Positions 2,160 through 53,256 of a DNA stretch of 64,000 bases are shown here, in pieces (within the stretch, counting starts at the first letter, position 1; the number at the start of each line of letters is the position of its first letter). The translations under genes were made by a program, and so were the position numbers. Source of the stretch: an uncultured Candidatus Saccharibacteria bacterium (lineage in GTDB: Bacteria > Patescibacteriota > Minisyncoccia > Phycocordibacterales > JACOZG01); assembly GCA_964651115.1 (NCBI GenBank), contig CAZYXJ010000001.1, positions 42,273 to 106,272 of the forward strand. Direction: 5' to 3'. Below the pieces are notes generated by a model. That model was not told where the DNA came from. It saw only the letters and a program-made list of their open reading frames with translations, and ran no database searches.

Positions 2160-2342
2160 ACCTGTCTCCTTACCTTATTTGGAGTCTGTCATCTCCCCGA
2201 GCAGTACCATACTGCTCTTGCTGGGGCACTACTATTTACTGATTGAAATTGGCAAAGTCCAGTCCGTTGGGTAGTGTAAATTATGTAAACGAGTTCGTCA
2301 ATGGCAGTTGGGGAATGGGATTCGTGTGTTATAATGCGCCTC

Positions 2343-3284
2343 ATGAATACCAAAACAACGGCGCGGGATTTTTTCCTGCAACTGGGAGTGACGGTGACGC
2401 TCTACGTGAGTGCTGTCAGTTTGCTGACCTTGCTCTTCCAGATTATTAATTTAGCTTTTCCGGATGCGCTCGAGTCCCGTTATTACGTCGACCCATACTC
2501 CACGGGCATGCGCTGGGCGATTGCCTGCCTCTTTATCGTTTTTCCGCTCTACTTGGTGCTCTCGTGGTTGGCCAACCGTGATTATCGTCGGGAGCCAGCC
2601 AAGCGCGAGCTCGGCATCCGCAAGTGGCTCATCTTTTTTACGCTCTTCGTGGCGGGGGTGGCGCTGGCCGTCGATCTGATTACGCTCATTAACTACTTTT
2701 TGGGCGGCGAGATTACGATCCGCTTCGTGCTTAAAGTCTTGGCGGTACTGGTGGTGGCGGCCGTCATCTTTGCCTATTACTTGGTGGAGGTCCGGCGCGA
2801 GCAGGGGTGGTCGCGGAGCGCCAATCGTGCCTTTGCCTGGGTGGATGGCGCGGCGGTCCTCGGGGCGATCATTCTTGGCTTTGTGGTGATGGGTTCGCCC
2901 TTTACCGTCCGGCTGGGACGTTTTGATCAGCAAAAGGTTTATGATTTAGAAAATATCCAGTGGCAGGTGATTGACTACTACCAGCGCCAAGCGCATCTCC
3001 CAGCTGATTTGGCCGCTCTGACCGACTCGATCGGTGGCTGGAGCGCGCCGCTTGATCCCCAGACTGGCCAGCCGTACGACTACCGGATGGTAACGCCGCT
3101 CTCCTTTGAGCTCTGTGCGGACTTTAATCGTGAAAGCGCCCCAAGCCAAGACAAGAGCTTGACGCGGCCGATTGAGCCGACCTTCTCTAACTGGGAGCAC
3201 GCGGCGGGGCGGCAGTGCTTTGCTCGCGTCATTGATCCGGTCCGCTATCCAGTGAACAAACTCAATGGAGACGTACGATCATAA
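2343..3284 (+). CDS. multi-pass membrane protein, DUF5671-like
   Basis: Several hydrophobic helices. The N-terminus MNTKTTARDFFLQLGVTVTLYVSAVSLL resembles the DUF5671 family common in Patescibacteria. An extended -10 (TGTTATAAT at about 2327-2335) sits immediately upstream, so the start is probably the internal Met at 2343 and the mRNA may be leaderless. The ORF track starts at 2301. Confidence 0.5.
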   Translation: MNTKTTARDFFLQLGVTVTLYVSAVSLLTLLFQIINLAFPDALESRYYVDPYSTGMRWAIACLFIVFPLYLVLSWLANRDYRREPAKRELGIRKWLIFFTLFVAGVALAVDLITLINYFLGGEITIRFVLKVLAVLVVAAVIFAYYLVEVRREQGWSRSANRAFAWVDGAAVLGAIILGFVVMGSPFTVRLGRFDQQKVYDLENIQWQVIDYYQRQAHLPADLAALTDSIGGWSAPLDPQTGQPYDYRMVTPLSFELCADFNRESAPSQDKSLTRPIEPTFSNWEHAAGRQCFARVIDPVRYPVNKLNGDVRS

Positions 3285-5544
3285 AAAGATAGAGTCGAAG
3301 TGGCGCGCGGCTTGGCGGGAGGCGCGCGCTTGGGCCACCCCGGCGACGCTGGCTGGACCAAAGACTTACGTGCTCGACATGTTCCCTTACCCCTCAGGCG
3401 AGGGTCTGCACGTGGGCCATCCCAAGGGTTACATCGCCACCGACATTTATTCCCGCTGGCGGCGGATGTGTGGCGATGCCGTGCTCCATCCGATGGGCTG
3501 GGACGCCTTTGGTTTGCCAGCCGAGAACTACGCGCTTAAGAATCACGTTCACCCCCGGCAGGCCGTGGAAAAGAATATTGCTCGCTTTAAGGAACAACTT
3601 TCGCTCTTGGGTTTTGATTATGATTGGGAGCGGGAGATTAACACGACGGATCCGGAGTATTATCGCTGGACGCAATGGATCTTTCTTAAACTCTACGAGC
3701 GCGGTTTAGCGTACCAGTCGCATGAGCCGATCAATTGGTGCCCGTCCTGCCAGACTGGTTTGGCCAACGAAGATCTGGAGGATGGCAAGTGCGAGCGCTG
3801 TGGCAGTGTGGTGGAAAAGCGTCCACTCCGGCAGTGGGTGCTTAAGATTACCGATTACGCCGATCGGCTGCTGGCCGATCTGGAGCCACTCTGTTGGCCG
3901 GAGTCGATTAAAGAATCTCAGCGCCACTGGATTGGCCGGAGCGAGGGGGCCGAGTTTGATTTTGCGCTCGAGGGTCGGACGGAGAAGTTGACTGTTTTTA
4001 CCACGCGACCCGATACGCTCTATGGCGTGACCTTTGTGGCGATTGCGCCGGAACTGGCTCTTAAATTGGGCGCGGCGGGGGAAGTTAAAAGTTTTTCCGA
4101 GACGGAAGTGGCCCGCCGCGCGGCAGCTGGCTTTAAGGAGGATCCGGCCAAGCGGGGGCTGGATACCGGCTGGCGCGCGCAACATCCGGCGACGGGCGAG
4201 TCGGTGCCGGTGTGGGTGACGAATTATGTTTTGGCGGACGTGGGGACTGGCGCCGTTATGGGCGTCCCGATGCACGATGAGCGCGACTTTGAGTTTGCCC
4301 AAAAATACAATTTACCAAATTCTGAGGCCGCGCTAATTTCTGCGGATGAGGCGTTGCGAGTGGGGAGTGGTCGGGCGCGGGTGACGTATCGTCTCCGCGA
4401 TTGGGTGTTTTCGCGTCAGCGCTACTGGGGCGAGCCGATCCCAATGATCCATTGTGCTAAGTGCGGCACCGTGCCGGTGCCAGAAAAAGATTTGCCGGTG
4501 CGCTTGCCGGAGGTCGAGCGCTACGAGCCCACCGGCACTGGCGAGTCACCACTGGCGGCGATTACCGATTGGGTTAACACGACTTGTCCTACCTGCGGCG
4601 GCCCCGCCAAGCGCGAGACCAACACTATGCCGCAGTGGGCCGGCTCGAGCTGGTATTATTTGCGCTATCTTGATCCGCGAAATGATTCTGCACTGGTTGA
4701 TCCGGCGCGTGAGCAGTATTGGTCGCCGGTCGATGTGTATGTCGGCGGCGCCGAGCACGCCACACGTCACTTAATTTACGCGCGTTTTTGGCACAAATTT
4801 TTACACGATATTGGCGTGGTGAGCCGGACCGAACCTTTCCAGCGCCTCGAGCACGTGGGCCTGATCTTGGCCGAAGATGGTCGCAAGATGAGTAAGCGCT
4901 TTGGCAACGTCATTAACCCTGACGAAATCGTGGAGCGTTACGGCGCCGACACTTTGCGTTTGTACGAAATGTTTTTGGGGCCATTTAATCAGGCGGTGGC
5001 TTGGAGTACCGAAAGTATTATTGGCCCGCGCCGCTTTATTGAACGAGTGTGGCGTTTGGCTGGTGCTGTTGATCGGTCTGGCGAGGCGCCGCGGTGGACA
5101 GAACTTAATCGGGTGATTGAGAAGGTGGGCGCCGACATTGCGGCCTTTAAGTTTAATACGGCGATCTCCGCGCTGATGATTGCGGTGAGTGAGCTGGAGA
5201 CCTTGCCGGCCGTGGCTCAGGCGGATTTTGAGACTCTGCTTAAGCTCTTGGCGCCCTTTGCTCCTCACGTCACGGAGGAGTTGTGGCAGAGTTTGGGCCA
5301 CGCTGATTCGATACACCAAGCCGGTTGGCCCGCGGCTATGGCGGGGGAGTGGCAGGCGCGCGTCAAAATCGTCATCCAGGTTAATGGGGTCAAGCGGGGC
5401 GAACTAGAGCTCTCTGGCGACTATCTGGAAGCAGAGGTCGTCGCCCAAGCCCAGGTCTTGCCCGAGGTGGCTAAGTGGCTGGCGGGCCAGAGCGTCAAGC
5501 GGACGGTCTATAAGCCGGGCCGGTTAATCAACTTCGTGGTCTAA
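3265..5544 (+). CDS. leuS: leucyl-tRNA synthetase
   Basis: HIGH-type motif (PYPSGEGLHVGHPKGY), KMSKS motif (KMSKRFGNV) and the editing/CP1-like region. The WCPSCQT...CERCG zinc motif is typical of LeuRS. 759 aa. Confidence 0.93.
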   Translation: METYDHKKIESKWRAAWREARAWATPATLAGPKTYVLDMFPYPSGEGLHVGHPKGYIATDIYSRWRRMCGDAVLHPMGWDAFGLPAENYALKNHVHPRQAVEKNIARFKEQLSLLGFDYDWEREINTTDPEYYRWTQWIFLKLYERGLAYQSHEPINWCPSCQTGLANEDLEDGKCERCGSVVEKRPLRQWVLKITDYADRLLADLEPLCWPESIKESQRHWIGRSEGAEFDFALEGRTEKLTVFTTRPDTLYGVTFVAIAPELALKLGAAGEVKSFSETEVARRAAAGFKEDPAKRGLDTGWRAQHPATGESVPVWVTNYVLADVGTGAVMGVPMHDERDFEFAQKYNLPNSEAALISADEALRVGSGRARVTYRLRDWVFSRQRYWGEPIPMIHCAKCGTVPVPEKDLPVRLPEVERYEPTGTGESPLAAITDWVNTTCPTCGGPAKRETNTMPQWAGSSWYYLRYLDPRNDSALVDPAREQYWSPVDVYVGGAEHATRHLIYARFWHKFLHDIGVVSRTEPFQRLEHVGLILAEDGRKMSKRFGNVINPDEIVERYGADTLRLYEMFLGPFNQAVAWSTESIIGPRRFIERVWRLAGAVDRSGEAPRWTELNRVIEKVGADIAAFKFNTAISALMIAVSELETLPAVAQADFETLLKLLAPFAPHVTEELWQSLGHADSIHQAGWPAAMAGEWQARVKIVIQVNGVKRGELELSGDYLEAEVVAQAQVLPEVAKWLAGQSVKRTVYKPGRLINFVV

Positions 5545-5598
5545 TTCTTGACTGTTTACGGGGTATATGATACAAATAATTCAATAAATTAAACCAAT

Positions 5599-6633
5599 AT
5601 GGTCAAAGAAGTTATTACGTTTAAGCCGAAAAAGGTGGTCAAGGAGCTTTTGGCTGGCGTCCCAGAGCGGGCGCGTCATATTATTACCCTTCGTTATGGT
5701 CTAGAAGAGTCCGAGCGCCTGACGTTGGAGGCGATTGGTAAAATCTATTCGATTACCCGTGAGCGGGTGCGCCAGATCGAGGACTTTACTCTTAAGTCAA
5801 TCAAGAAATCTGGGGCCGTCGATACTCGTCGAGATGTTTTTCGCGAATTAGAGCTGGCGATGGAAGAGTACGGTGGAATTGTCCATGAGCGAGAATTTTT
5901 AGAATATGTTTCTCCCAAGGATGAGGTGGTACAAAATATTATCCACTTTTTGTTGGTGCTTGGTGACTCGTTCGATAAATTAAAGGAGGACGAATCTTTT
6001 CATCATCGCTGGACGACTGATCGAGATTTAGCTCACGCTATTCACGAGTCACTTAAAAATTTGTGCGTTCAGATCTCCGATAATGATTTGCTGAGCGAAG
6101 AAGAGTTGATTGCTTTGTTTAAGAAAAATTTGGTGGCCAAAATCGCGCCGGCCAAGGCCGAGAAGCATGGGCGCACCTGGCTCAATCTTTCTAAAGAAGT
6201 CGGTCAGAGCCCGATTGGCGAGTGGGGTTTAACCAAATCTCCCAACGTTAAGGTGCGTGGCATTCGTGACTATGCTTATTTAATTATGCGCAAGCATGGT
6301 TCGCCGATGCATTTTACCGAAGTGGCTAAGGCCATCGAGACCGCTTTTAAAAAGAAGGCTAATCCCGCTACTTGTCATAACGAGTTGATTAAGGACGAGC
6401 GTTTTGTGTTGGTTGGTCGCGGTATCTATGCTTTGGCCGAATGGGGTTACGCCAAGGGCGTGGTGCGCGATGTGATCCGCGCCGTTCTTAAGGCCAATGG
6501 CCCCCTAACCAAAGACGAAATTTTAGAGAAGGTGCTCAAGGAGCGTTACGTTAAGGAAAATACGATCATCGTCAATCTCAAAAATTCTAAACACTTTAAG
6601 CACGACAAAGCGGGACGTTATTCGACGGTTTAG
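5599..6633 (+). CDS. putative transcription regulator: sigma-70 region-4-like HTH plus C-terminal HARE-HTH domain
   Basis: The N-terminus LTLEAIGKIYSITRERVRQIE matches the sigma-70 region 4 HTH, but there is no region 2. The C-terminus (MHFTEVAKAIE...CHNELIKDERFVLVGRGIYALAEWGY) resembles HARE-HTH. The gene has lower GC than its flanks. Confidence 0.55.
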   Translation: MVKEVITFKPKKVVKELLAGVPERARHIITLRYGLEESERLTLEAIGKIYSITRERVRQIEDFTLKSIKKSGAVDTRRDVFRELELAMEEYGGIVHEREFLEYVSPKDEVVQNIIHFLLVLGDSFDKLKEDESFHHRWTTDRDLAHAIHESLKNLCVQISDNDLLSEEELIALFKKNLVAKIAPAKAEKHGRTWLNLSKEVGQSPIGEWGLTKSPNVKVRGIRDYAYLIMRKHGSPMHFTEVAKAIETAFKKKANPATCHNELIKDERFVLVGRGIYALAEWGYAKGVVRDVIRAVLKANGPLTKDEILEKVLKERYVKENTIIVNLKNSKHFKHDKAGRYSTV

Positions 6634-6674
6634 GGCTGGTCAGCTGGGGTGGTTCTTTACTATAATAAAACTAA

Positions 6675-7931
6675 ATGGACTGGAGTCTTTTTTGGTCAGC
6701 GTCACTCGGCTACTTGTTTGGCGTCATTTTGCGGAGTGCGGTAGTGTGGTTGCCGCTGACTCTGGCTTATTTGTGGTGGGTGTTGCGGCTAGACGCGCTT
6801 CGGATTAAGACCATTGCGAGCCAGCAGCCGGTGTTGCTTGAAGTTAAGCTCCCGAAAGAGATTTTAAAATCACCCCAGGCGATGGAGTTGGTGATTACTT
6901 CGCTCTCCTTTAGCGGCGCGGCGACTTATCTAGAAACTTATCTTAAGGGCAAGATTAAACCTTGGTCGTCTTTGGAGATTGTCTCGCTGGGCGGCGCGGT
7001 TAAATTTTATTTTTGGCTGCAGGATCCGGGCAAAAAAAACACGGTTGAGTCGCAGATTTATGCTCAGTATCCCGGAGTGGAAGTGCGCGAGGTGCCCGAT
7101 TACACGCTCGAAGCGTATGATCCTGAAAAATATAATATGTGGGCCGGACATTTTAAGTTGTCTAGTGATAATGTTTTGCCGATCAAAACCTACATTGATT
7201 ATGGTTTAGACAAAAATCCCAAGGAGGAGCACAAGGTTGATCCCATTACGGTCATGCTTGAGTATTTGGGTTCGTTGCGTCCTGGGGAGCAGTGCTGGAT
7301 CCAGATTCTTATCCAGGCTCACGGCAAAGAAGGACTGAAAGAAGGTCGGCTCTACGAAAAAGCGAGCTGGGTCAAAGCGGGTGAGAAAAAAATTGAAGAA
7401 ATTATCAAAAAAGCCACTCCGCCGGATGGTAAGGGTCCACCTAATTTGACTCCCGGTCAGCTCGACATTATTAAGGCCATCGAGCGCGACATCAGTAAAA
7501 TTCCTTTCGAAACAATGATTCGAGGTTTGTATATCGCCACCAAGGAGGCTTTTAATCCTTCTAATATTGGTGGAATGATTGGCACTTTTCGCCAGTATAA
7601 CGCGCCCAACCTCAATGGCTTTAAAATTGGTTGGAACAGTGATCACAAGGCTCTGGGCAAAGATTTGGTGACCTTGTTTGGTTTTATCCCGTGGTTTAAT
7701 AATCACATGGCTAAACGTAAACTCAAGCAGGAGCGCGCCCTGTTTGATGCCTATCGCAAGCGCTCTTTTTTCTACTGGCCGTACGCGGGCTTGGGCAAAG
7801 ACCAGTCTTTTATTATGAATACCGAAGAGTTGGCGACGATCTTTCATTTCCCTGGTCAGGTCGCGGGGACGCCAACTTTGACCAAGATTGAGTCTAAGCG
7901 CGCCGAGCCTCCGGTTAACTTGCCCATCTAG
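6675..7931 (+). CDS. hypothetical membrane-anchored protein
   Basis: 418 aa with an N-terminal TM segment followed by a large soluble domain. No recognised family. A TGGTCA-N18-TATAAT promoter-like sequence lies at about 6637-6666. It shares lower GC with the preceding gene. Confidence 0.5.
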   Translation: MDWSLFWSASLGYLFGVILRSAVVWLPLTLAYLWWVLRLDALRIKTIASQQPVLLEVKLPKEILKSPQAMELVITSLSFSGAATYLETYLKGKIKPWSSLEIVSLGGAVKFYFWLQDPGKKNTVESQIYAQYPGVEVREVPDYTLEAYDPEKYNMWAGHFKLSSDNVLPIKTYIDYGLDKNPKEEHKVDPITVMLEYLGSLRPGEQCWIQILIQAHGKEGLKEGRLYEKASWVKAGEKKIEEIIKKATPPDGKGPPNLTPGQLDIIKAIERDISKIPFETMIRGLYIATKEAFNPSNIGGMIGTFRQYNAPNLNGFKIGWNSDHKALGKDLVTLFGFIPWFNNHMAKRKLKQERALFDAYRKRSFFYWPYAGLGKDQSFIMNTEELATIFHFPGQVAGTPTLTKIESKRAEPPVNLPI

Positions 7932-7933
7932 TA

Positions 7934-8818
7934 ATGCTTTCGGGACGTTTTTTCTGGTGGTTGGTGGCGGTAGCTATTTTGGCTTTGGGAACAGTCGGGT
8001 TGATTTCTATCTTGCCGCCGGCGAACTTTCCCGTTAATCAGATTGTGACGGTGGCGCCTGGTAGCACGGTAATTGATTTGGCGAAAGAGCTTCGCGCGCG
8101 AGGAGTGGTGAGGAGCGCGCGCGTCTATTCTTATTTGGCGCGTCATTTTAGGGCCGGCGAACTTAAAGCCGGTTATTACGAATTCGAACGGCCTCTGCCC
8201 GTTTTTTCGGTGGTCGAGCGTTTCAATCAGGGTATTTTTACTTTTTCGCCCGTCAAGATCACGATCCCCGAAGGTTGGAGTAACGAGAAAATTGCCGAGC
8301 GCTTAGGTGAGCGTCTAAGCGGCTTTGATAAAGAGGAATTTTTGCGTTTGGCCGAACCCTGGTCAGGGCAACTCTTTCCCGATACTTACTTTTTCCCGCC
8401 CCACACTGACCCCGCCACGGCCGTCGCTATTTTGCAGGCCCAGTTTAAAAATCAAATGGTTGAGATCCTACCTAAAATCGAAGCCGCCGGTCGCACTTTG
8501 CCCGAGGTGCTTGGACTCGCCGCCTTGATTGAGGGCGAAGTGCCCGGGATCAAAGATCGCCGCTTGGTGGCTGGTATTTTGTGGAAGCGTTACGACACCG
8601 ATCACTTACTCCAAGTAGATGTGGCCACCAGCACTTACGAAACTTTGGGTTTACCGGCGCGGCCGATTGTTAATCCCGGCTTAGAGGCGATTGAGGCGAC
8701 GCTTGAGTTTACGGAGTCACCTTTTTGGTTTTATCTTTCCGATCAGGAGGGAGTGACGCGTTACGCTAAGACGTATGCTGAGCATCAAGCTAATATTGCT
8801 AAGTATTTGCGAGACTAG
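7934..8818 (+). CDS. mltG: endolytic murein transglycosylase MltG (YceG family)
   Basis: N-terminal TM segment plus YceG-like motifs (AGYYEF, GILWKRYDTDHLLQVD, TYETLGLPARPIVNPG). Confidence 0.8.
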   Translation: MLSGRFFWWLVAVAILALGTVGLISILPPANFPVNQIVTVAPGSTVIDLAKELRARGVVRSARVYSYLARHFRAGELKAGYYEFERPLPVFSVVERFNQGIFTFSPVKITIPEGWSNEKIAERLGERLSGFDKEEFLRLAEPWSGQLFPDTYFFPPHTDPATAVAILQAQFKNQMVEILPKIEAAGRTLPEVLGLAALIEGEVPGIKDRRLVAGILWKRYDTDHLLQVDVATSTYETLGLPARPIVNPGLEAIEATLEFTESPFWFYLSDQEGVTRYAKTYAEHQANIAKYLRD

Positions 8819-8835
8819 TGGTCACGCCGTATAAT
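8807..8835 (+). promoter_or_regulatory. sigma70-like promoter TTGCGA-N17-TATAAT
   Basis: TTGCGA at about 8807-8812, a 17 nt spacer and TATAAT at about 8830-8835, about 10 nt before the ATG of the exonuclease gene. Confidence 0.4.
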
Positions 8836-8844
8836 TGGTGATCT

Positions 8845-9399
8845 ATGAAAAAACACAATCTGGCTTTTATTGATGTTGAGACCACGGGCCTTGATCCTGA
8901 TCGTCACGAGATAATCGAAATTGGCTGTATTGTGGCGAAGCAAGTTCCGAGCGGCAACGGTCGGGGAGCGACCTTAGAAATTTTGGAAGAATTTGAAAGC
9001 AAGGTTAAACCCGAACATTTAGAAACGGCCGAGCCCGAGGCGCTCCGCGTTAATGGTTACAATAGCGGCGATTGGCTCTTTGCCCCCGATTTAACTCAGG
9101 TAATGAAAACGGTGGCCGAGATTACGCCTGGCGCCAACATCATCGGGCAGAATGTTTTTTTTGATTGGCAGTTCGTGGATCGCGCTTTTAAAAAAACGGG
9201 GGTGCCAAATCGGATGCATTATCATCGCCTGGATTTGATGTCGATGGTCTTCGCCAAATGCTACCACGATGAGCGTCTCCAGCGCTTTAATCTCGGATCA
9301 CTTTGCGAATATTTTGGTGTTAAAAATGACGCCGCTCACACGGCTTTGGCCGACATCCGCGCGACGGTTGAAGTTTATAAGAAGTTGTTAGAGATTTAA
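8845..9399 (+). CDS. DEDDh 3'-5' exonuclease (DnaQ/epsilon-like)
   Basis: Exo I motif FIDVETTGLD, and a C-terminal H...D motif (HTALADIRATVEVY). Confidence 0.75.
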   Translation: MKKHNLAFIDVETTGLDPDRHEIIEIGCIVAKQVPSGNGRGATLEILEEFESKVKPEHLETAEPEALRVNGYNSGDWLFAPDLTQVMKTVAEITPGANIIGQNVFFDWQFVDRAFKKTGVPNRMHYHRLDLMSMVFAKCYHDERLQRFNLGSLCEYFGVKNDAAHTALADIRATVEVYKKLLEI

Positions 9400-15939: not shown

Positions 15940-17193
15940 ATGTTTCAAGATATTCGTCGACCTAAAAAAAGTTTGCGCGAAATTTTGCCCGGTCGGGCCT
16001 CGGTGGCCGAAGTAGAACCAAGTTACGAGGAAGCAGCGCCGACCGTTGATCAGTACGTGAGTCGCCCTGTTCGCCAGCCCCGTTCGCGGGGCTGGGGTTT
16101 GGTGGTGGTGGCTTTGTTGATTGTGGGTTTGGGTTACTGGGTCTCGCGACAGGTAGCGACGGCCACGGTGACGATTACGCCCAAACAAACCATAATAAAT
16201 TTGGCTGACGCCTCGCTCTCTCTGCCTTATGAGGTGGCCACTCTTGACCCGATTAGCGCCGCTCGACCGGTTACCGCGACTGAGGCTCGCCCGGTAGAGC
16301 GTAAAGCCACTGGTAAAATTGTTATTTATAACGCTTTTTCGTCCGCCCCTGAGCGTTTGGTGGCTAATACTCGATTTATGGCGGCCAGTGGTAAGATCTA
16401 CCGGATTAGCGGTGCCGTCACTGTGCCCGGTCTTAAGGGCGATGTGCCTGGTTCGATTGAGGCGACGGTGACAGCGGATGCCCCCGGGGAGAGTTATAAC
16501 GCGCCGTTGACCGATTTCACCATCCCGGGTTTTAAGGGTACACCCCGAGAAAAGAAGCTTTACGCTCGCTCTCAAACACCCATAACTGGTGGTTTTGCTG
16601 GGACGGAGCGAGTCGTCCCCGAGGCCGAGAAAACGGCCTTGGTTACCGAGCTTAAGTCGGAGATTATTGCTCGCGCCAAACAACAGGCCGAGTTCCAAAT
16701 TCCCAAAGATTACGTCTTGTTGCCTGATGGCCTGGAGATGACCTGGACGGAACGGGTTGAGGGCGCTTCGACGGTGGCCAGTTCCAGTTTGGTTGTTGAG
16801 GGGACACCGCAGGTGTTGCTGGCGAAGCGCTCAGTCTTGGATGAGAAAATCGTGGCCGCCGGCAACCTCGATCCGAGTGATCATTTGTCGATTTCTAATC
16901 TGGAAAATCTCGAGTTAAACTTCACTAACGTGGCGGCTTTAGCGGCGGCGACTACTCCGGGCAGTCGAGTGGCCAATGTCTCAGCTCGCGGTCAACTTAA
17001 GGCCCAAATGCCCCTTGATCCTGAGGAGTTGGCTAACAAATTAGCTGGTCAATCTAAGGCCGAAGCGAACGTGGTTTTCCAACAATTCCCGGGAATCGCC
17101 TCGGCGGTTCCGAGCTTCCATCCTCCCTGGATTAGGAGCTTCCCCAACGACCCCAGTCGAATCAAAATTAACCTGGTCAGCGAGACTAATTAA
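15940..17193 (+). CDS. bitopic membrane protein (about 60 aa cytoplasmic N-terminus, one TM segment, large extracytoplasmic domain)
   Basis: 417 aa. TM segment WGLVVVALLIVGLGYWV. No family recognised. It immediately follows the ASKHA ATPase. Confidence 0.5.
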   Translation: MFQDIRRPKKSLREILPGRASVAEVEPSYEEAAPTVDQYVSRPVRQPRSRGWGLVVVALLIVGLGYWVSRQVATATVTITPKQTIINLADASLSLPYEVATLDPISAARPVTATEARPVERKATGKIVIYNAFSSAPERLVANTRFMAASGKIYRISGAVTVPGLKGDVPGSIEATVTADAPGESYNAPLTDFTIPGFKGTPREKKLYARSQTPITGGFAGTERVVPEAEKTALVTELKSEIIARAKQQAEFQIPKDYVLLPDGLEMTWTERVEGASTVASSSLVVEGTPQVLLAKRSVLDEKIVAAGNLDPSDHLSISNLENLELNFTNVAALAAATTPGSRVANVSARGQLKAQMPLDPEELANKLAGQSKAEANVVFQQFPGIASAVPSFHPPWIRSFPNDPSRIKINLVSETN

Positions 17194-31160: not shown

Positions 31161-32825
31161 ATGCTAAATAACCTCATTACTTGTCCAGATTCTGTGCCAA
31201 ACTTCCTGGGAATTGTTGATACCCAACTAGCCCCTCCATTGCTATTTTATTCATATCTACCAATTATTGCCATTTGCTTATTTATGGGGGGATACGTTCT
31301 TGCGGCAAGCAAGTTTTCCCTAATTTCTAAAGCTTTCTTGGCCATCAGCATATTTTTTTCATTATGGTCAGCAAACGCACTTTTCCAGTGGATCGGGGTT
31401 CACGCCGACATAGTTCACTTTTCTTGGCAAATAATCATATTGTTTGAAGCCCTAATGTTTATTTCCGTGTTTTATTTTTCTTACGTTTTTTTACACAACA
31501 AGACACCATCGATATGGTGGCAAGTTGCACTGTCGGTTATTTTGTTCCCAATTATCTTACTTTTACCGTCCCGTTTGAATATCACCGCTTTTGATTTAAC
31601 TAATTGCGCCGGACTAGTTGGCTCTTTATGGCGATACGAATATGTAATGGAATTTTTCATTGCAATTTTGATTTTGTATTTTACCTTTAAGAAATGGCAA
31701 ATTAAAAAGAACATGAAAAGTAAAGAGGTTCTTTTGGGAGTTTCGTCCACTTTTTTTCTGGTCTTATTTTCGATTACAAACATAATTGGCGACGCCACTG
31801 GTTACTATCAAGTAACACTGGCGGGATCTATAGGTTTTGCAGTTTTCTTGGGAGCAGTTGTTTTCCTCATCGTCCGCTATAAGGCCTTCAATATTAAGAT
31901 CATTGGAACACAGGCCCTGGTTGTAACTTTGTGGGTTTTGACTGGATCATTGCTTCTGGTGGCCAAATCGGAAGTCACCCGAATCATTGTGGCATTAACA
32001 GAGATCGTCTCAATTATCTTCGGTCTCATTTTGATTAAAAGTGTTAAGCGAGAAGTCGCGCAGCGGGAAAAAATCGAAAAATTGGCCAGTGCCCTGGCGG
32101 AGACAAACGACGAGCTAAACGTGGCTAACGAAAAACTTAAAGAACTAGACAAACAGAAAACCGAATTCGTTTCGGTGGCGTCGCATCAGTTGCGTGCTCC
32201 GACTACGGCCATCAAAGGTTACTCCTCAATGCTTCTCGAAGGTTCTTATGGTCCGCTGGAAGAGAAGGCCAAGCAAGCTGTCGACGTCATTTTCCAATCA
32301 GCCCAAAAACTTAATTTCGTGATCGAAGATTTTCTCAACATTACCCGCATTGAGTTGGGCAAAATGAAGTATGAGATTTCTGAAGTTGATTTAAAGAAAA
32401 TGGTTGATCAGGTATTTAAGGAGCTCGACCCCGTGGCCAAGCGCAAGGGTCTCGAATTTAGCTTTAGTGCTGGACGAGGCTCGTTTAAGGTGATGGCCGA
32501 TCCCAGCAAGCTTTCCCAAGTCATTATGAATATTGTGGATAACTCAATTAAATATACTCCCAGTGGTTCAATTAAGGCTCGCCTTGAGGTCAAGGGAGGC
32601 AAACGTCTCTTTAGTATTACCGACACCGGTGTCGGCATGAGCGAAGAGACTCGGGGGCGCCTATTCCAAAAGTTTACTCGTGCCTACAACGCCAGCGCCT
32701 CTAACGGCACCGGTACTGGCTTAGGACTCTTCGTCGCCAAACAAATGATCGAGGCCCAAGGCGGACGTCTGTGGGTTGAGTCTGCCGGCGAAGGGAAGGG
32801 GAGCACCTTCTTTGTGGAGTTGTAG
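31161..32825 (+). CDS. sensor histidine kinase with N-terminal multi-TM sensor domain (orphan)
   Basis: About 7-8 TM helices, then HisKA H-box FVSVASHQLRAPTTAIKGY and HATPase_c G-boxes (DTGVGM, GTGLGLFVAK). No response regulator is adjacent. A TATAAT lies about 8 nt before the ATG. Confidence 0.85.
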   Translation: MLNNLITCPDSVPNFLGIVDTQLAPPLLFYSYLPIIAICLFMGGYVLAASKFSLISKAFLAISIFFSLWSANALFQWIGVHADIVHFSWQIIILFEALMFISVFYFSYVFLHNKTPSIWWQVALSVILFPIILLLPSRLNITAFDLTNCAGLVGSLWRYEYVMEFFIAILILYFTFKKWQIKKNMKSKEVLLGVSSTFFLVLFSITNIIGDATGYYQVTLAGSIGFAVFLGAVVFLIVRYKAFNIKIIGTQALVVTLWVLTGSLLLVAKSEVTRIIVALTEIVSIIFGLILIKSVKREVAQREKIEKLASALAETNDELNVANEKLKELDKQKTEFVSVASHQLRAPTTAIKGYSSMLLEGSYGPLEEKAKQAVDVIFQSAQKLNFVIEDFLNITRIELGKMKYEISEVDLKKMVDQVFKELDPVAKRKGLEFSFSAGRGSFKVMADPSKLSQVIMNIVDNSIKYTPSGSIKARLEVKGGKRLFSITDTGVGMSEETRGRLFQKFTRAYNASASNGTGTGLGLFVAKQMIEAQGGRLWVESAGEGKGSTFFVEL

Positions 32826-51084: not shown

Positions 51085-52299
51085 TTAACGTTTACGTCCT
51101 AGTAAAAAATCAATCGCCGCTTCCAGTGGCCGATCCGGCGCTGAGTCAGCCGTCGAAGTGGCCGCCTCCACCACGACATCTGGATCCAAACCATCGTGAG
51201 AAATAGAAATTCCCTTGGGGGTCAACCAACGAGCCACCGTCACTTTAAGCGCCGTGTCGGAAGAGATTGGCACCAACTCCTGGACGGATCCCTTGCCGAA
51301 GGTTTTAGTGCCAATTAGCGTCGCTACGCCATGCTCACGCAAAGCCCCAGCCAAAATCTCGGAAGCCGAGGCGCTCCCCTCGTCAACCAAAACAACCATT
51401 TTTAGCTTCTCATTAAAGAGGCCGCGATCATCGCTTTTGTAAACCTTACTCTCACCATCGCGCCGCTCCTCCCGAACCACCACCTGATCAGCGGGCAAGA
51501 ACCAGCTGGCAATATCAACCGCCGCATCCAAGTAACCACCAGGGTTACCCCGCAAATCCAAAATTAGTTTGTCGGTTTTGGAGCGAACGAACTCGCTAAG
51601 CGCCGTCCGAAATTGGCGCTCACTTGTGCCGCCAAAATTAAACAGTTTGATTAAGAAAATTTTCTCTGGCAACAGCTTCGTCTCCATGGTGGGCACTTCG
51701 ATCCGCGCCCGAGTAAGAGTCACGTCGAAAGTGGTTTGATCAGCCGACGAAGCACCGCGCAAAATACTCAACTTAACCTTGGTACCAATATCACCCCGGA
51801 TTTTACTAATGGCCTCGGCAACGCTCATCTCGGCCGCCGCCTGTCCATCAATGGACAAGATTTTATCGCCGGCCTTTAGGCCGGCGGCGGCGGCCGGCGT
51901 CCCGGGCAAGGGAGCAATAATCGTGAGCATCCGATCACGGGCGCCGACCTCCATCCCCACACCACCAAATCGCCCACTAACCTCCTCCTTAAAACTTTTG
52001 TTTTCTTCCGGTGGCAAAAAGACAGTATAAGGATCATCAAACGAATCAACTAACCCACCGATCGCCCCCCACAACTTTTGCTCATTCGTTACCGCCGCAC
52101 TGCTAGTGGCCGAAGAAACAAAACGCTCATCGAGCAAATTCCAGACTCGCCAGAAGTCATCAAGGTTAACCTCAGCTGGCTCGGTCGCCGCCCGGTTCTG
52201 AAATCCCCAAGCCACCCCGCCCACAAACGCTCCGCCGACCAAAATTAAAGCCAGGACCAAAAAACTCAAACTTTTTAGAGTCTTATTCATGTTGCTCAA
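51085..52299 (-). CDS. carboxyl-terminal processing protease (S41, CtpA-like)
   Basis: N-terminal TM segment, PDZ domain (GLKAGDKILSIDG) and S41 catalytic region (LVDEGSASASEILAGAL, GTKTFGKGSVQ). Confidence 0.85.
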   Translation of the reverse strand: MSNMNKTLKSLSFLVLALILVGGAFVGGVAWGFQNRAATEPAEVNLDDFWRVWNLLDERFVSSATSSAAVTNEQKLWGAIGGLVDSFDDPYTVFLPPEENKSFKEEVSGRFGGVGMEVGARDRMLTIIAPLPGTPAAAAGLKAGDKILSIDGQAAAEMSVAEAISKIRGDIGTKVKLSILRGASSADQTTFDVTLTRARIEVPTMETKLLPEKIFLIKLFNFGGTSERQFRTALSEFVRSKTDKLILDLRGNPGGYLDAAVDIASWFLPADQVVVREERRDGESKVYKSDDRGLFNEKLKMVVLVDEGSASASEILAGALREHGVATLIGTKTFGKGSVQELVPISSDTALKVTVARWLTPKGISISHDGLDPDVVVEAATSTADSAPDRPLEAAIDFLLGRKR

Positions 52300-52356
52300 T
52301 TATCCCAAATTGACCCTTGGTGGTCAAACTAAAATCACGCTATACTATGGGGGAAT

Positions 52357-53256
52357 ATGTTGCGCACGTTTACCTACAAAGAAATCCACTGGTTGGATCT
52401 AGAAAGTCCCACGGAAACCGAATTAGCTGAAGTGGGCAACAAATACAATCTCCACCCCCTCACCCTCGAAGAATTACGCCGCCCTTCCAACCGCAGCAAG
52501 GTCGACGCCTATCAAGACTACCTGTATCTCATTCTCCATTTTCCTGATCGACCAAATCAAGAAGCTCAAGAAGTGGACTTTGTTGTTGGATCCGACTTTA
52601 TCATTACCGCTCATTACGAACCAATTAATTCTCTACTTGATTTTGCTAAAATTTTTGAAACCGATCTGGCCTTAAAAAAGAATAATCACAAAGTCCACGG
52701 CGGTCTCGTCCTCTATTTGATCCTGCGCGAAATGTACGCCACGCTCGATCTTAGTCTCTCAGCAATTAACAATCGCCTAAAAACCATTGAGCCCAAAGTC
52801 TTCTCTGGTAAAGAACGCGAGGTCGTCACCGACCTCGCCGGCGTTAGTCGGGACTTGCTCGACTGCCAATGGAATATCAAGACTCATCGCGAAGTCCTCC
52901 AATCTCTCAACTACTCTGGGCGAGAGCTGTTTGGAGACAAATTTAATTACTATAGCCAGGCCTTAAGCAGTGAATACGATAAGGTCTGGAACTCAATCGA
53001 AAACATCCGTGGCACCTTTAACGAACTGCGCCAAACCAACGAGTCCCTGCTGGCCATTAAGTCTAACGAAACGATGAAATTACTCACCGTTTTGGCCTTC
53101 GTCTTCTTCCCCCTCTCCGTCATCCCTCAAATTTTCGGCATGAATACGGAACTGCCACTCATCGGTCAACCCTACGACTTTTACAGCGTACTTGCGCTTA
53201 TGTTTGGTTCGAGTATTGTGATGTACGTCTTGGCCCGATTTAAAAAATGGTTCTAA
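52357..53256 (+). CDS. corA: CorA-family Mg2+/Co2+ transporter
   Basis: Two C-terminal TM helices with the GMN motif (IFGMNTE). Confidence 0.8.
   Translation: MLRTFTYKEIHWLDLESPTETELAEVGNKYNLHPLTLEELRRPSNRSKVDAYQDYLYLILHFPDRPNQEAQEVDFVVGSDFIITAHYEPINSLLDFAKIFETDLALKKNNHKVHGGLVLYLILREMYATLDLSLSAINNRLKTIEPKVFSGKEREVVTDLAGVSRDLLDCQWNIKTHREVLQSLNYSGRELFGDKFNYYSQALSSEYDKVWNSIENIRGTFNELRQTNESLLAIKSNETMKLLTVLAFVFFPLSVIPQIFGMNTELPLIGQPYDFYSVLALMFGSSIVMYVLARFKKWF

Follow-up and report, generated by a model that had tools for sequence, protein, structure and literature searches.

Our analysis of a 64,000-nucleotide (nt) stretch of DNA from an uncultured Candidatus Saccharibacteria bacterium (contig CAZYXJ010000001.1 of assembly GCA_964651115.1, positions 42,273 to 106,272, hereafter the window) showed that two adjacent genes in it, here called P1 and P2, are core genes of the class Paceibacteria within the Patescibacteria, or candidate phyla radiation (CPR), where they are part of a housekeeping block, leuS-P1-P2-mltG(-mnmA-alaS). 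Taken as a whole, the explanation toward which we lean, with somewhat better than even confidence, is that P1 would be a regulator that reads promoter -35 elements and P2 an ATPase-less membrane scaffold working with MltG, the two not forming a sigma/anti-sigma module. The genes concerned are as follows (window positions).

3265 to 5544, forward strand: leuS, the conserved upstream neighbor of P1 (Pfam)
5599 to 6633, forward strand: P1 open reading frame (ORF), 344 amino acids (aa)
6675 to 7931, forward strand: P2 ORF, 418 aa
7934 to 8818, forward strand: mltG (YceG family), the downstream neighbor of P2 (Pfam YceG, E 1.5e-47)

In the window, mltG starts 2 nt past the P2 stop codon and is followed by a gene for an RNase T-type exonuclease. 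Gene order was scanned with one genome per species; at least 575 genomes carried P2, and the best 80 loci were analyzed. In 75 of these 80, P2 has P1 immediately 5' of it in the same orientation, in 78 it has mltG immediately 3', and leuS lies 5' of P1 in 67 to 69, the order leuS-P1-P2-mltG being kept in about 75 of the 80 Paceibacteria species genomes. An earlier note on this DNA had named such a neighborhood check beforehand as a test that could refute the pairing of the two genes, and the pair proved to be conserved together. The outer neighbors are less conserved (mnmA in 51 loci, alaS in 33, and a DUF5671-like ORF before leuS in 33), and the exonuclease gene of the window and its ZIP gene recur in only 6 and 2 loci, respectively. 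In part of the class, the conserved block reaches at least one gene beyond leuS. A membrane ORF lies 5' of leuS in the window (2301 to 3284), conserved in 33 of the 80 loci; in another locus (L024, 2792 to 3745), the ORF at the equivalent position matches DUF5671 and was not compared with that of the window.

The earlier note had also presented P1 and P2 as a low-GC pair lying between leuS and mltG. The dip in guanine-plus-cytosine (GC) content is real and modest: GC is 0.44 to 0.49 across the pair versus 0.52 to 0.61 on the flanks, and by gene it is 0.466 for P1, 0.479 for P2, and 0.584 for leuS, with 0.510 for the window. It is not meaningful, however. The dip comes mainly from codon position 2 (GC2 of the pair, 0.33 to 0.38); at position 3, the pair (GC3, 0.53 to 0.56) equals mltG, the exonuclease gene, and the majority of the other sampled genes, and leuS is an outlier on the high side. 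Among 67 related loci, the offset from the locus mean GC was +0.001 for P1 and +0.005 for P2, which is no difference. With a normal GC3 and no offset in relatives, the low GC carries no signal of foreign origin. P2 had no relatives in phage records or IMG/VR, and its PHROG match (phrog_5156, E 1.5e-4) is weak, so we rejected a phage or mobile origin. A horizontally acquired low-GC island, which would account for the contrast of the pair with leuS and the rest of the window, is therefore scarcely credible: the conserved gene order, the absence of a GC offset in relatives, and the lack of phage relatives argue that the pair belongs to the housekeeping block, the four genes forming one conserved unit, and is not an insertion. 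The lowest GC among the sampled genes, below that of P1 and P2, was found in a HisKA/HATPase sensor kinase gene elsewhere in the window (31161 to 32825; GC 0.433, GC3 0.48).

P1 is predicted from its sequence to be a cytoplasmic DNA-binding protein whose N terminus is a copy of region 4 of the housekeeping sigma factor. The fusion of sigma-70 region 4 with a HARE-HTH domain that the earlier note had read from the translation is borne out by Pfam matches well above the cutoffs, Sigma70_r4 (PF04545) covering aa 17 to 70 (E 5.7e-13, 48.6 bits versus a cutoff of 24.1) and HARE-HTH (PF05066) covering aa 224 to 282 (E 7.3e-10, 39.5 bits versus 25.9). Pfam and NCBIfam scans gave no match to Sigma70_r2 or Sigma70_r3 in P1, and the NCBIfam sigma models match it through their region 4 part only. 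Since P1 lacks region 2, it cannot act as a sigma factor, and by its domain content it is not one, again in agreement with the earlier note. An AlphaFold2 (AF2) model with a pLDDT of 83, the HARE-HTH part reaching only 50 to 80, divides P1 into five modules (aa 10 to 70, 78 to 139, 142 to 211, 222 to 278, and 289 to 343), among which no internal repeats were detectable. Besides the four listed here with their predicted isoelectric points (pI), there is a helical module (aa 142 to 211) that includes a hairpin.

5632 to 5814, forward strand: sigma-70 region 4 (4.1 to 4.2) helix-turn-helix (HTH), P1 aa 12 to 72 (Pfam, hhalign to sigma-70)
5830 to 6015, forward strand: acidic winged-helix-like module, P1 aa 78 to 139, pI 4.7 (AF2 helix-strand-helix-helix-strand-strand, charge calculation)
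6268 to 6444, forward strand: HARE-HTH winged helix, P1 aa 224 to 282, pI 9.6 (Pfam PF05066; AF2 helix-helix-helix-strand-strand)
6463 to 6627, forward strand: C-terminal winged helix, P1 aa 289 to 343, pI 10.0 (AF2 model, charge calculation)

The basic modules (pI 9.6 to 10) are region 4, HARE-HTH, and the last winged helix, and the acidic module had no Pfam match. A word-based search returned more than 7,900 P1 homologs, a count that may include true sigma factors; among the best 120 of these, Sigma70_r4 was present in all 120 and HARE-HTH also in 118, and every organism name given among the listed homologs was patescibacterial (Paceibacterota, Vogelbacteria, Pacebacteria, and others). In NCBI, the homologs bear the name "sigma factor-like helix-turn-helix DNA-binding protein," and our literature searches yielded no paper that treats the family in CPR bacteria.

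By hhalign, P1 aa 12 to 72 align with residues 542 to 602 of Escherichia coli sigma-70. The family alignment has a mean column identity of 65%, and the residues invariant in it, R24, R32, L43, T53, R54, E55, R56, R58, and Q59, correspond to R554, R562, L573, T583, R584, E585, R586, R588, and Q589 of sigma-70. These positions we take to be contacts to the -35 hexamer, as known from sigma-70 genetics and from the structure of Thermus aquaticus sigma-A region 4 with -35 DNA. P1 thus very probably reads TTGACA-like DNA as the housekeeping sigma does. What P1 has in common with group-1 sigma factors (RpoD/SigA) is region 4 with these -35-aligned invariant residues; it lacks regions 1.2, 2, and 3, so it cannot melt promoters, and after region 4.2 it runs through a linker into unrelated winged helices. 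Of the NCBIfam and PADLOC models, P1 matches best to MzaA, a member of the sigma-70 family from the anti-phage system MZA, yet this match covers region 4 only (aa 11 to 71 versus model positions 644 to 704 of 726) and reaches 59 bits versus a cutoff of 800, and P1 does not lie in a defense locus. There was no rpoD in the DNA examined, and no paper was found on the retention of sigma-A region 4 here.

The best-known homes of both recognizable modules of P1 contact RNA polymerase (RNAP): sigma region 4 binds the beta flap, and the delta subunit binds RNAP. This opens the way for another hypothesis, namely, that P1 is an RNAP-bound accessory factor, with region 4 on the beta-flap tip and HARE-HTH acting as in Firmicute delta, which would take the place of the housekeeping sigma's region 4, or vie with it, and redirect or tune initiation genome-wide instead of working as a free DNA-binding repressor or activator. 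We regard this as a serious but unlikely possibility. It agrees with the origin of the two modules, with the group-1-like character of region 4 (30 to 33% identity), and with a column identity and near-universal presence in the class that would be expected of a core machine part, and the acidic module (aa 78 to 139) could be a protein-contact surface. The comparison with delta (RpoE), the type bacterial HARE-HTH protein, is ambivalent: P1 does match the NCBIfam delta model TIGR04567 (E 3.9e-6), but at 27 bits it falls below the curated 42-bit cutoff, and whereas delta has its HARE-HTH at the N terminus and a long acidic tail after it, in P1 the domain is internal, there is no acidic C-terminal tail, and the C-terminal 60 residues have a pI of 10.0. 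Furthermore, the C-terminal segment of sigma-70 past residue 602 contributes to flap binding, but the part of P1 aligned beyond this residue, which follows region 4.2, is a linker that varies across the P1 family. Finally, the invariant residues aligned with -35 contacts fit DNA reading, though they are compatible with RNAP binding. That P1 is a novel RNAP-associated regulator, a possibility raised by the earlier note, or one that binds -35 elements is plausible from its domains. HARE-HTH domains reportedly also occur in certain bacterial proteins in which traits of the RNAP alpha subunit and of sigma are united; P1 likewise joins a HARE-HTH to a sigma-derived module and may belong with them, and it showed no similarity to the alpha subunit (E. 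coli RpoA).

The region 5' of P1 provides a possible target for its region 4, in the form of a promoter-like element with 17 nt between the -35 and -10 hexamers.

5548 to 5576, forward strand: P1 promoter-like element, with -35 TTGACT (5548 to 5553), extended -10 TG (5568 to 5569), and -10 TACAAA (5571 to 5576)

The hexamer TTGAC[AT] occurs within 100 nt 5' of P1 in 57 of 73 relatives, versus 2 of 67 for leuS, 1 of 80 for P2, and 2 of 79 for mltG, and the full arrangement TTGACW-N13-15-TGnTAnAA is found at 48 of the 73 P1 loci. Counted in both orientations, TTGAC/GTCAA amounts to 1.77 copies per 130 nt 5' of P1, compared with 0.15 to 0.30 for the neighboring genes and 0.24 for all DNA examined, an approximately 7-fold excess; 44 of the 73 loci have at least two copies, often as direct or inverted pairs 8 to 14 bp apart, with 11 to 12 bp a frequent distance. 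Across 604 genes with an upstream spacer of at least 40 nt, TTGACW preceded 17%, a share that dropped to about 9% once P1 was removed. From the combination of an HTH that would read TTGACA with a promoter of its own that is unusually rich in TTGACA, we infer that P1 likely autoregulates. Elsewhere in the window, a palindrome, TTGACC-N6-GGTCAA (52310 to 52327), lies in the 57-nt spacer between the divergent genes of an S41/PDZ peptidase (51085 to 52299, reverse strand) and a CorA transporter (52357 to 53256); it may serve as an operator or as a -35 region common to both genes.

P2 proved to be the membrane-anchored 418-aa protein of unknown function that the earlier note had described, with an N-terminal hydrophobic helix and without a match in the Pfam, NCBIfam, or PADLOC libraries used, the Pfam copy having no PF26449 model. 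Its homologs number 2,112 at 90%-identity clusters and 2,856 clusters at 50% identity. All 120 listed homologs, one of them 96% identical to P2, carry a precomputed PF26449 assignment, and UniRef names a 48%-identical homolog "DUF8128 domain-containing protein"; by proxy via these homologs, P2 very likely belongs to DUF8128/PF26449. The description "uncharacterized" therefore holds for P1 and P2 in that neither has an assigned function, while both are members of large catalogued families. Among the best 150 of the 2,856 clusters, lengths range from 241 to 500 aa, and none is fused to another domain. The AF2 model of P2 (pLDDT 89.4, pTM 0.86) consists of a long N-terminal helix (aa 9 to 49) and an alpha/beta globule.

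6684 to 6788, forward strand: P2 N-terminal membrane anchor, about aa 4 to 38 (hydrophobic segment, AF2 helix)
6924 to 7916, forward strand: P2 globular region resembling the N-terminal domain of VirB4 and type IV coupling proteins, aa 84 to 414, ending in TEELATxxH and a PPxNLP tail

In 36 of 41 family members, there is a single hydrophobic segment with lysine and arginine enriched after it, and the remaining 5 have two segments, consistent with the same topology. This enrichment predicts that the globular domain is cytoplasmic, as in VirB4.

The ancestry of P2 emerged from both sequence and fold. In tblastn, 16 Bacillus-group plasmids encoded "DUF87 domain-containing" proteins whose N-terminal portion matched P2, and the profile of the P2 family aligned by hhalign with the 883-aa DUF87 protein of a Shouchella clausii plasmid at 98.3% probability (E 1.7e-14). 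The alignment spans aa 84 to 414 of P2 and aa 41 to 311 of the plasmid protein, and the TEELATxxH motif, invariant in the P2 family, aligns with TEEMAAIMRLP. As the alignment ends at aa 311 and the DUF87 ATPase domain starts at aa 326, P2 corresponds to the whole noncatalytic N-terminal domain, stopping where a P-loop domain would begin; P2 has no match to a P-loop family in Pfam or NCBIfam. The fold of the AF2 model matches the N-terminal domain of VirB4 and also EccE. On this evidence, P2 is an ATPase-less, membrane-anchored protein homologous to the noncatalytic N-terminal part of VirB4/DUF87 conjugation ATPases. With the Bacillus-group DUF87 ATPases, which belong to the HerA/FtsK/VirB4 superfamily, it shares the N-terminal domain, including a (T)EE(L/M)A...P motif immediately ahead of the ATPase domain, but these plasmid proteins continue into the ATPase whereas the chromosomal P2 stops at the domain boundary. 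With VirB4/TrwK, from the inner-membrane complex of type IV secretion systems (T4SS), it shares the fold at 8 to 9% identity, but P2 lacks the C-terminal P-loop ATPase, has a membrane helix of its own, and sits outside any T4SS cluster. The likeness to EccE of the mycobacterial ESX type VII secretion system is one of fold without sequence similarity, and no other ESX components turned up, although no dedicated search was made.

Stand-alone relatives of the VirB4 N terminus are not without precedent in this phylum. A 2025 survey reported that Patescibacteria encode a chromosomal monoderm-type VirB4, near dnaA/dnaN in Paceibacteria, along with many VirD4-type ATPases encoded apart from virB4, and that the most abundant patescibacterial T4SS component is TrsD, a VirB4-N-terminal-like protein of unknown function whose homologs mostly adjoin virB4 (PMC12102498). 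Like P2, TrsD is a widespread ATPase-less relative of the VirB4 N terminus; it differs in length (227 aa versus 418 aa) and in lying beside virB4 instead of mltG. By sequence, we found no signal that would make P2 a relative of TrsD or of VirB4 (TrsE) when it was compared with the pSK41 proteins; hhalign gave a probability of 0.2 for TrsD, where a single TrsD sequence was compared and a very remote relation is possible. In a check of whether P2 figures in Table S3 of the survey, a list of T4SS components, six accessions were absent from the part of the table examined.

This kinship raises the question of whether the block is the remnant of a domesticated conjugative system, in which P2 would be the N-terminal domain of a coupling protein, P1 a DNA-binding accessory protein, and MltG a wall-opening VirB1-type hydrolase, all acting with the patescibacterial T4SS or with coupling ATPases encoded elsewhere. 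Such a scenario is suggested by the homology of P2 to a plasmid ATPase whose gene adjoins one for a replication-relaxation protein, by the chromosomal T4SS, dispersed VirD4-type ATPases, and abundant TrsD of Patescibacteria (PMC12102498), and by the lytic transglycosylase gene adjoining P2. We consider it very unlikely nonetheless, as no T4SS gene was found within 8 kb on either side in the 80 loci or in the window, TrsE-, TrsK-, or DUF87-ATPase-like partners included; the context is one of housekeeping genes (aminoacyl-tRNA synthetases, mnmA); the P2 profile lacks similarity to TrsD and TrsE of pSK41; P1 lacks similarity to the replication-relaxation protein encoded beside the plasmid DUF87 gene; and MltG is a general cell-wall enzyme. 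On the S. clausii plasmid itself (NZ_CP012476, locus L084, 5842 to 9389), the DUF87 ATPase gene lies directly 5' of the replication-relaxation family gene, and a second large ATP-binding protein is encoded after conjugal-transfer genes, despite which the plasmid is typed as "non-mobilizable."

P2 is tied more tightly to mltG than to P1. Median gaps are 90 nt between leuS and P1, 81 nt between P1 and P2, and 23 nt between P2 and mltG, the last gap being 20 nt or less in 39 of 79 loci. In the three loci that lack P1 5' of P2 (L017, L034, and L038), P2 still precedes mltG; the gene 5' of P2 in L034 encodes a class I aminoacyl-tRNA synthetase (methionyl-tRNA synthetase-like by eye). In L017 (6239 to 7906), the usual place of P1 is taken by a gene for a PIF1/RecD-like helicase with a C-terminal HTH, and in L038 (3893 to 10083), mreB-mreC-(mreD?)-pbp2 is followed by P2-mltG, with P2 starting 24 nt past the pbp2 stop codon, so that in this patescibacterial genome the P2-mltG pair sits within a gene cluster for cell-wall elongation. 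A wider link of P2-mltG to mreBCD-pbp2 was dismissed, since L038 is the single such locus of 80. P2 also has a promoter-like element of its own in the window.

6637 to 6666, forward strand: P2 promoter-like element TGGTCA-18-TATAAT, found by a consensus scan, with TATAAT (6661 to 6666) lying 8 nt before the ATG at 6675

In many relatives (for example, L004, L007, L010, and L077), good -10 hexamers likewise end close to the start codon of P2, with 6 to 8 nt in between. The closeness of TATAAT to the ATG suggests a near-leaderless P2-mltG transcript, and cotranscription of P2 and mltG is probable from the arrangement of the genes. A close -10 element also precedes the exonuclease gene (8807 to 8845), the -10 hexamers ending 6 to 10 nt before the P2 and exonuclease start codons, which suggests that leaderless or near-leaderless mRNAs may be common in these genomes.

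Region 4 is a usual target of anti-sigma factors, and the earlier note had accordingly wondered about an anti-sigma-like pair, in which the cytoplasmic domain of P2 would hold region 4 of P1 at the membrane and free P1 upon an envelope signal. The adjacency of the two genes on one strand and the architecture of P2, whose cytoplasmic globular domain is tethered by a membrane anchor, are what such a pair would show. Several lines of evidence nevertheless make it quite improbable. First, no anti-sigma domain (ZAS, RskA, RsdA, FecR, etc.) was detected in P2 by Pfam, NCBIfam, or PADLOC, and its fold and sequence are those of a VirB4/DUF87 N-terminal domain, with EccE as a further match in fold. Second, without region 2, P1 has no sigma activity to restrain. 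Third, the spacers between P1 and P2 are promoter sized and contain -10 elements, P2 keeps mltG and not P1 in the three loci named above, and the linkage of leuS to P1 is about as strong as that of P1 to P2. The reading as an anti-sigma-like pair is not supported.

Considering these data, we return to the model favored at the outset. P1 would bind -35-like TTGACA hexamers, its own promoter being the first target, and would thus be an autoregulated, probably abundant, lineage-specific transcription factor, whose remaining winged helices may touch RNAP or additional DNA. P2 would be expressed with mltG from its own near-leaderless promoter and would serve as a membrane scaffold that either docks a separately encoded ATPase or works with the cell-wall enzyme MltG.

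There are several observations that weigh against this model. The perfect -35 and extended -10 elements may only mark a strong sigma-A promoter of P1, and the additional TTGAC copies differ among the P1 loci in where they lie and which way they point; the window itself has a single copy in the P1 spacer plus one inverted copy inside leuS. Furthermore, other TTGAC-rich upstream regions revealed no shared regulon, the genes behind them being unrelated (S41 peptidase, CorA, mnmA, and DUFs), and a P1 regulon defined in this way was rejected. With respect to P2, MltG has only about 5 cytoplasmic residues here, so that any contact it makes with the part of P2 in the cytoplasm would have to pass through the membrane helices. 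Finally, the adjacency of P1 and P2 in 75 of 80 genomes is not explained by the model except as conserved gene order.

A further scenario, which we see as a long shot, is that P1 is a lineage-specific general transcription factor residing on RNAP by way of a HARE-HTH like that of delta, a contact of region 4 with the flap, or both, that it provides or competes for -35 recognition in trans, and that its availability is controlled at the membrane by a T4SS-derived P2 scaffold traveling with MltG. If true, a detached sigma region 4 would link promoter usage to the envelope or cell-contact state in epibiotic bacteria.

A few further observations concern the sampled loci and the rest of the window. 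One locus labeled Thermodesulfobacteriota (L018, JBBDIN010000155.1) has the Paceibacteria leuS-P1-P2 block at 46 to 56% identity and is probably misbinned, and many loci are titled "uncultured Candidatus Saccharibacteria" though their closest named relatives are of the Paceibacteria type. The window also contains a 417-aa ORF without a Pfam match (15940 to 17193); despite its like length, it has no similarity to P2, which rules out that P2 is its paralog.

The Paceibacteria are among the largest uncultured groups, and their control of transcription and building of the envelope are almost unstudied. In P1, near-universal in the class and very conserved, the -35-reading module of the housekeeping sigma appears to be reused outside a sigma factor, making P1 a candidate global regulator or RNAP accessory factor of the lineage. 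In P2, the noncatalytic N-terminal domain of conjugation ATPases stands as an independent chromosomal core gene tied to MltG, representing a second ATPase-less VirB4-N-terminal-like family beside TrsD, and DUF8128 gains a structural and evolutionary placement. Current views are not overturned by these findings; instead, two hypothetical proteins of this lineage become specific candidates.

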